Below are positions 5,951-7,135 of a DNA stretch of 64,000 nt, in pieces. The notes below the pieces were generated by a model. That model saw only the letters and a list, made by a program, of their open reading frames with translations. It was not told where the DNA came from and ran no database searches. Positions within the stretch are counted from its first letter, which is position 1. Every line of letters starts with the position of its first letter. The translations under genes and the position numbers were made by a program. Source of the stretch: Escherichia coli (GTDB lineage: Bacteria > Pseudomonadota > Gammaproteobacteria > Enterobacterales > Enterobacteriaceae); NCBI RefSeq assembly GCF_024700885.2, contig NZ_CP117016.1; one strand, written 5' to 3'.

Positions 5951-7135
5951 ATGACTAAAACAAACCATGAGCTTAGCCCGGCGCTGATCGTGCTGATGTC
6001 TATCGCCACCGGTCTGGCGGTAGCCAGTAACTATTACGCCCAGCCATTACTCGACACCATCGCGCGTAACTTTTCCCTTTCCGCCAGTTCGGCGGGCTTT
6101 ATTGTTACCGCCGCGCAGTTGGGCTATGCCGCAGGTCTGCTGTTTCTTGTTCCCCTCGGTGATATGTTTGAACGCCGCCGCCTGATTGTCTCGATGACCT
6201 TACTGGCAGCGGGCGGTATGTTAATCACTGCCAGCAGTCAGTCACTGGCGATGATGATCCTCGGTACGGCATTGACCGGTTTATTCTCGGTCGTGGCACA
6301 AATTCTGGTTCCGCTGGCAGCGACGCTGGCTTCACCAGACAAACGCGGCAAAGTGGTCGGCACCATTATGAGCGGGCTGCTGTTGGGGATCTTGCTGGCA
6401 CGAACCGTTGCCGGGTTGCTGGCAAACCTCGGCGGCTGGCGCACCGTCTTTTGGGTTGCCTCGGTGTTAATGGCACTGATGGCGCTGGCATTATGGCGTG
6501 GTCTGCCACAAATGAAATCAGAAACCCACCTCAACTACCCACAGTTGCTTGGTTCCGTTTTCAGCATGTTTATCAGCGATAAAATTCTGCGCACCCGCGC
6601 GTTGCTGGGCTGCCTGACCTTTGCCAACTTCAGCATTCTATGGACCTCAATGGCCTTTTTGCTCGCCGCTCCGCCTTTTAATTACAGCGATGGCGTCATT
6701 GGTCTGTTTGGACTTGCGGGAGCAGCCGGAGCGTTGGGCGCTCGTCCGGCGGGCGGTTTTGCCGATAAGGGTAAATCGCACCACACCACAACTTTCGGTC
6801 TGCTGCTGCTGTTACTTTCATGGCTGACGATCTGGTTTGGTCACACTTCCGTACTGGCGCTGATTATCGGCATCCTGGTGCTGGATCTCACCGTGCAGGG
6901 CGTGCATATCACTAACCAGACAGTAATTTATCGAATACACCCTGATGCGCGTAATCGCCTGACCGCAGGTTACATGACCAGCTACTTTATTGGCGGTGCC
7001 GCCGGTTCGCTAATTTCAGCCTCAGCCTGGCAACATGGCGGTTGGGCTGGCGTTTGTCTGGCTGGCGCGACGATTGCCCTGGTTAACTTACTGGTCTGGT
7101 GGCGAGGTTTTCATCGTCAGGAAGCCGCAAATTAA
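5951..7135 (+). CDS. ygaY: MFS-family transporter YgaY (intact here)
   Basis: 394-aa uninterrupted ORF with multiple TM helices between proX and ygaZ. Confidence 0.85.
   Translation: MTKTNHELSPALIVLMSIATGLAVASNYYAQPLLDTIARNFSLSASSAGFIVTAAQLGYAAGLLFLVPLGDMFERRRLIVSMTLLAAGGMLITASSQSLAMMILGTALTGLFSVVAQILVPLAATLASPDKRGKVVGTIMSGLLLGILLARTVAGLLANLGGWRTVFWVASVLMALMALALWRGLPQMKSETHLNYPQLLGSVFSMFISDKILRTRALLGCLTFANFSILWTSMAFLLAAPPFNYSDGVIGLFGLAGAAGALGARPAGGFADKGKSHHTTTFGLLLLLLSWLTIWFGHTSVLALIIGILVLDLTVQGVHITNQTVIYRIHPDARNRLTAGYMTSYFIGGAAGSLISASAWQHGGWAGVCLAGATIALVNLLVWWRGFHRQEAAN

Follow-up and report, generated by a model that had tools for sequence, protein, structure and literature searches.

The ygaY gene of the Escherichia coli DNA analysed here is very probably an ordinary, functional-looking allele in its ancestral state, and K-12 alone would have lost it, through a deletion of 7 bp. 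The DNA was a stretch of 64,000 nucleotides from contig NZ_CP117016.1 (assembly GCF_024700885.2), which is called the window in the following. When the open reading frames were listed in all six frames, a single long uninterrupted frame of 394 codons with an ATG start was found on the plus strand at 5951..7135. The identical 1185-bp coding sequence is annotated in the RefSeq record of E. coli strain 1190 as an MFS transporter (WP_000169334.1, 100% identity), and the 1501 bp around ygaY are likewise 100% identical to this strain. The intact ygaY of 394 residues that the original prediction had placed here is therefore present. On its 3' side the gene is followed by ygaZ and then by ygaH, mprA/emrR and emrA. 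The features of the locus are listed in Table 1.

Table 1. Features in and around ygaY. Nucleotide positions refer to the window, residue numbers to YgaY.
Feature	Position	Strand	Description and basis
proX, upstream neighbour	4506..5498	+	last gene of proVWX; ORF and strain 1190 annotation of the identical region
Polymorphic part of the proX-ygaY spacer	5499..5858	+	about 360 bp; replaces a REP-containing K-12 segment of about 100 bp (MG1655 locus 3126-3224)
Minus-strand ORF, 100 aa	5524-5826	-	wholly inside the repeat/spacer; ORF list
Copy of a dispersed structured repeat	5559..5810	+	TwoAYGGAY-like core 5569-5697; sub-threshold RF01731, paralogous copies, covariation
Shared ygaY upstream region	5859..5950	+	92 bp, 93.5% identical to MG1655 locus 3225-3316
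ygaY coding sequence	5951..7135	+	394 aa and stop; ATG-started ORF, MFS_1, WP_000169334.1
Motif-A-like TM2-TM3 loop	6155..6181	+	residues 69-77, LGDMFERRR; translation, conservation in 103 sequences, AlphaFold2
Bases missing in K-12	6205..6211	+	GGCAGCG, codons 85-87, middle of TM3; MAFFT alignment with b2681
ygaZ, downstream neighbour	7259..7996	+	L-valine exporter subunit; ORF and strain 1190 annotation
Model helices, N-terminal half	residues 10-25, 45-65, 75-94 (TM3), 99-126, 132-161, 163-184		AlphaFold2
Model linker helix	residues 196-209		AlphaFold2
Model helices, C-terminal half	residues 211-239, 247-272, 276-298, 301-329, 331-393		AlphaFold2; the last segment comprises two helices

The K-12 allele was compared with the window by a global pairwise MAFFT alignment. 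The MG1655 record NC_000913.3 carries a 1178-bp pseudogene annotation for ygaY (b2681), and a RefSeq record of W3110 describes the same interval as 'MFS transporter, frameshifted'. The alignment with MG1655 showed 45 substitutions and a single gap of 7 bp in K-12, at 96% nucleotide identity. At the junction, CTTACT-GGCAGCG-GGCGG in the window becomes CTTACT-GGCGG in K-12. The exact boundary of the deletion can be moved by up to 3 bases, with GGC on either side. In K-12 the frame is shifted after residue 87 and the product ends at 88 aa, whereas in the window the seven bases are present and the frame is open, so that the window does not carry the K-12 pseudogene allele. The disruption that the original prediction had named for MG1655 was thus found, and it is absent from the window. 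The two alleles are otherwise alike: they occupy the same locus in the order proX-ygaY-ygaZ, and the protein reconstructed from K-12 differs by two residues.

Past the lesion, the original K-12 frame is still open as far as the same stop codon, which argues for a recent event. Since GGC stands on both sides, the deletion is bounded by a direct repeat of 3 bp. A short direct repeat at the edges of a deletion is the usual footprint of replication slippage, and slippage between the short GGC repeats would be consistent with the K-12 junction. In the proposed course of events, the loss of 7 bp between these repeats in TM3 would have shifted the frame and left a fragment of 88 aa.

The predicted protein was first searched against Pfam, where MFS_1 (PF07690) matched with 142.7 bits against a gathering cut-off of 33.4 (E=1.7e-41), which places YgaY in the major facilitator superfamily. 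An AlphaFold2 model, calculated from an alignment of 103 homologues with 33-93% identity, had a mean pLDDT of 95.0 and a pTM of 0.93. It contained 12 transmembrane helices, an inter-domain linker helix and a short helix at residues 67-71 between TM2 and TM3. Foldseek ranked the DHA1 exporters SotB (TM-score 0.84-0.90) and MdfA nearest, ahead of NorA and YajR; for the 12-TM exporters SotB and MdfA together the scores ranged from 0.81 to 0.90. The assignment as an MFS transporter with a full set of transmembrane segments, proposed from the sequence, agrees with all three results.

The TM2-TM3 loop of YgaY reads P68-L-G70-D71-M-F-E-R-R-R77. Among the 103 homologues P68 does not vary, while G70 and D71 are conserved to at least 90%. 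The textbook form of motif A in this loop is G-x-x-x-D-R/K-x-G-R-R/K, and we take the YgaY loop to be a compressed variant of it and counted it as such. The K-12 deletion is located just past this loop. The antiporter motif C has the form G-x8-G-x3-G-P-x2-G-G and lies in TM5. TM5 of YgaY, GTIMSGLLLGILLARTVAGLLANLGG, is glycine-rich and lacks G-P, and no clear motif C (GP...GG) was seen when the translation of this helix was judged by eye.

The family within the superfamily was then analysed with the curated NCBIfam models. YgaY showed sub-threshold similarity to aromatic-acid symporters, sugar-efflux transporters, Cmx/CmrA, Bcr/CflA and EmrD. The best scores, 38-64 bits against cut-offs of 200-480, leave YgaY outside the curated DHA1 families. 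All 25 matches were far under their cut-offs, and a specific functional name from this source was rejected. In a sequence search of the PDB, SotB was the only full-length match (residues 12-383, E about 5e-4), and GlcP and Qdr2 matched over the N-terminal domain. SotB, MdfA and NorA, which are DHA1 drug or sugar:proton antiporters, are the closest solved folds, with TM-scores of 0.81-0.90 over about 380 aligned columns, but they share only 14-17% sequence identity with YgaY, whose scores with their family models are far under the cut-off and which has no clear motif C. BLASTP against E. coli YnfM (b1596) gave 26% identity over 376 aa (E=2e-20), in line with TCDB family 2.A.1.36, the YnfM or acriflavin-sensitivity family. 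YgaY is tabulated as 2.A.1.36.3 in this YnfM family (PMC5417439). YnfM, also a 12-TM MFS protein and homologous over the full length, is a distant paralogue at another locus; the proton-coupled, CCCP-sensitive export of glutarate has been reported for YnfM (PMC12622518) and not for YgaY. On a single short contig, a homologue with 55% identity stands beside an AraC-type regulator and an FMN_bind_2 protein, which was too thin to be taken as a functional hint.

As a 12-helix transporter, YgaY would most likely work by rocker-switch alternating access, be driven by the proton motive force and export a small metabolite or xenobiotic. The opposite direction, in which YgaY would be a symporter importing a nutrient or an osmoprotectant in connection with proVWX, is unlikely, although it has several points in its favour. 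The gene adjoins this glycine-betaine/proline uptake operon, an MFS fold is compatible with either direction of transport, and TM5 shows no clear motif C. In addition, the N-terminal domain has partial matches to Pfam Sugar_tr and to the glucose transporter GlcP. However, the best full-length relatives in structure and sequence, SotB, MdfA, NorA and YnfM, are exporters, as are the downstream neighbours ygaZH and emrAB, and in K-12 the ygaY transcript levels are largely insulated from the induction of proU (PMC10656529).

When the window was compared with K-12, 42 of the 45 substitution steps were synonymous and 3 were non-synonymous (dS 0.151, dN 0.0035, dN/dS 0.023), and T4P and T293A were the only amino-acid differences. 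By this measure ygaY is under strong purifying selection in both lineages, up to the K-12 frameshift. Orthologues of 394 aa with 93-98% identity were found in E. fergusonii, E. marmotae, E. albertii, Shigella and Citrobacter. In Citrobacter the gene order nrdEF-proVWX-ygaY-ygaZH-mprA-emrAB is also the same. In both Escherichia and Citrobacter, ygaY would be a core gene with conserved synteny, lying between proVWX and ygaZH-mprA-emrAB. No change of length was detected in 39 sampled non-K-12 genomes; one genome had a large deletion at the ygaY locus. Truncated YgaY-like proteins with 90-99% identity, several of them with 93-99%, turned up in a search of representative proteins, and a database protein of 596 aa covers the whole YgaY at 73% identity. 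Fusions, independent frameshifts or errors of assembly in other genomes could account for such proteins.

The expression signals of ygaY are presumably contained in the shared upstream region, which would hold a putative promoter and the translation start signals. A simple consensus scan of the plus strand found no sigma-70 site in 5859-5950, and no strong Shine-Dalgarno sequence was obvious before the ATG. The best sigma-70-like site of the region was located between ygaY and ygaZ at 7204-7232 on the plus strand (TTAAGA-17-TATAAT, 10 of 12 matches), and the scan found no terminator-like site 3' of ygaY. Together, this site and the lack of a terminator-like site after ygaY suggest that ygaZH has its own promoter, separate from that of ygaY.

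The absence of a promoter-like site and of an obvious Shine-Dalgarno sequence would fit a gene that is open in the window but silent or decaying, i.e. a cryptic gene still without a stop codon by chance. It would also fit that K-12 tolerates the loss of ygaY, and that the ygaY deletion of the Keio collection was used as a neutral pseudogene control in a study of fitness assays (bioRxiv 10.1101/072470). We regard a silent gene as very unlikely, however, because the dN/dS ratio over the 45 substitutions is so low, the length of 394 aa is strictly kept across the Escherichia species and Citrobacter as well as in the 39 sampled genomes, and a frame of 1185 bp without a stop codon at 3.8% divergence is unexpected for a neutral sequence.

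To determine the distribution of the deletion, 5,426 complete E. coli genomes were searched with a K-12 query of 100 bp that had the junction in its middle. The deletion was present in 353 of 5417 genomes, matching at least 99% over 100 bp, while in 5,064 of 5417 the match spanned 107 bp and the seven bases were present. The result was bimodal, with no genome in the band of 95-99%. From the 353 carriers a spread sample of 60 was inspected, and all 60 were K-12 derivatives. They included MG1655, W3110, BW25113, BW2952, C600, MC4100, JM109, J53, TG1 and S17-1, and further ET12567, EPI300, RV308 and NEB Turbo. Since the deletion is common to all the main laboratory sublines, we infer that it predates their separation. 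Some non-K-12 isolates differed from K-12 in the 100 bp around the junction by nothing but the seven bases (93.5%, i.e. 100/107). The deletion therefore arose in a haplotype of which intact versions are still in circulation.

The intact orthologues in the outgroup species and the conserved synteny in Citrobacter indicate that the intact form is the ancestral one. Judged by these comparisons, the intact ygaY, which is present in about 93% of the E. coli genomes, is the ancestral and common state, and K-12 is the derived exception. That the seven bases are instead an insertion in the window lineage, or the K-12 difference a sequencing artefact, has a negligible chance: one pairwise alignment cannot polarise an indel, but the long form and the protein of 394 aa occur in 5064 genomes of all lineages and in the outgroup species, the short form occurs at 100% identity in all 353 independently sequenced genomes of the K-12 type, and it is the short form that breaks the frame. 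An insertion in the window in place of a deletion in K-12 was ruled out by these outgroup and population data.

The original prediction had also taken the intact gene as a sign of a non-K-12 lineage. This is correct, as the deletion is a K-12 marker that is absent here and the first 25 kb of the window correspond to natural isolates. As a lineage clue, the intact ygaY is only weakly informative: it excludes K-12 and points to nothing more specific, because about 93% of E. coli have it. The first 25 kb were 100% identical to about 15 genomes among the matches listed, including MLI114, 1190, SW4848 and O166:H15 strains. At least 99% identity was reached by 33 genomes, and the rest lay at 95-99%. 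By its sequence, the window is from a natural, non-K-12 clade.

The region between proX and ygaY differs in length, with 452 bp in the window and 191 bp in K-12. K-12 has a REP element here, whereas the window has a 360-bp segment with a structured repeat. Of 5426 genomes, 547 (about 10%) had the form with about 360 bp between these two genes. As read from these sequences, the spacer exists in at least two forms, neither of which is a simple insertion into the other. The minus-strand frame of 100 aa in this segment is probably spurious.

The repeat in the spacer lies 140 bp upstream of ygaY and is unannotated. In a blastn search, members of this repeat family were found in 5,425 of 5,426 E. 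coli genomes, at a median of 3 and a maximum of 10 places each; in 59 of 60 records among the matches listed the repeat was unannotated. Other copies are located in the yegH-asmA, tauA-mmuM and lysO-aqpZ spacers. A pattern scan over single genomes, one for each species, turned up multiple copies in Enterobacter, Kluyvera, Silvania, Pseudescherichia, Pluralibacter, Lelliottia and others, and one divergent copy in a Lysobacterales MAG. In K-12 MG1655 the yegH-asmA spacer holds a 5'-truncated remnant, from which a deletion of 178 bp has taken both AYGGAY-type hairpins. This remnant suggests that repeat copies decay by deletion, in addition to differing by presence or absence. In strain 0H25 (NZ_CP081690.1), tauA adjoins mmuM with a repeat copy between them; in K-12 we take about 100 kb to separate these genes, so that 0H25 would have undergone a large rearrangement or deletion.

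The repeat resembles the Rfam family TwoAYGGAY (RF01731), with scores of 28.2 bits for the window copy and 31.5 and 30.6 bits for two paralogues, under the gathering cut-off of 43. These sub-threshold matches span the whole model in three independent copies. TwoAYGGAY has an outer stem that encloses two hairpins with AYGGAY loops. The architecture of the repeat family is similar, its two hairpins being closed on CA[U/G]GGAUG, but in the window copy the sequence of both loops is AGGGAU and not AYGGAY.

The secondary structure was analysed by covariation in an alignment of 50 non-redundant copies. RNAalifold on the raw MAFFT alignment gave a partial structure only and was set aside for a hand-drawn structure, in which the outer stem is combined with a long stem carrying an invariant tandem G·A, a junction stem, the two CA[U/G]GGAUG hairpins and a small 3' hairpin. 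For the control, the 3' partner was slid by 1-3 columns, and 500 shuffles were also made. With the drawn structure 90.0% of the cells were paired, as against 34-40% after sliding. Double changes were observed in 27 of 50 pairs (10-16 after sliding) and in 238 cells (16-54), and the covariation score was 0.262 (at most 0.069). All 500 shuffles fell short of the observed values.

The tandem G·A was present in 47-48 of the 50 copies, and G·U cells (54) outnumbered A·C cells (34). Both features favour a structured RNA that would be read on the plus strand. The window copy folded with a z-score of -3.8. Possibly, the family is the 152-bp 'RSA' repeat that we assume for K-12; the literature searches found no text that supports this identity.

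A perfect TATAAT occurs in the window copy at 5787-5792, where other copies have GAGGAA or AAGGAA. A promoter made by the repeat was considered and rejected: no acceptable -35 sequence stood at 16-18 bp from this hexamer and the scan made no call.

The pseudogene status of ygaY in K-12 is established, so that the finding is correct and already known. A chromatin study of proVWX refers to 'the crypticity of ygaY' and mentions in-frame stop codons that lie between the two ygaY amplicons (PMC10656529), and the fitness-assay study cited above treats the gene likewise. A literature search returned many engineering papers that use the ygaY locus as a neutral integration site. That the gene is intact outside K-12 is implicit in the RefSeq annotations. 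In the searchable literature, which covers the use of ygaY as a K-12 pseudogene, a neutral locus and a chromatin bridge, no experiment or paper on the intact protein was found. As K-12 makes no YgaY protein, the transporter was never characterised and ygaY has routinely served as a 'neutral' integration or control locus.

By analogy with the paralogue YnfM and with the neighbours ygaZH and emrAB, YgaY might function as an exporter for one particular endogenous metabolite, with a phenotype that was hidden by the loss in K-12, and the TwoAYGGAY-like repeat upstream might modify its expression in the lineage of the window. This extended proposal is speculative and we consider it rather improbable. 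If it were true, the repeat 140 bp upstream would sit in the 3' region of the proVWX transcript, and almost all work on E. coli physiology, being done in K-12, would have missed a transport phenotype.

Taken together, the finding means that K-12 is an incomplete reference for E. coli, with little import beyond bookkeeping: an MFS transporter that is conserved in about 93% of the genomes, and by its substitution pattern under purifying selection, is missing as a protein in the standard laboratory strain.
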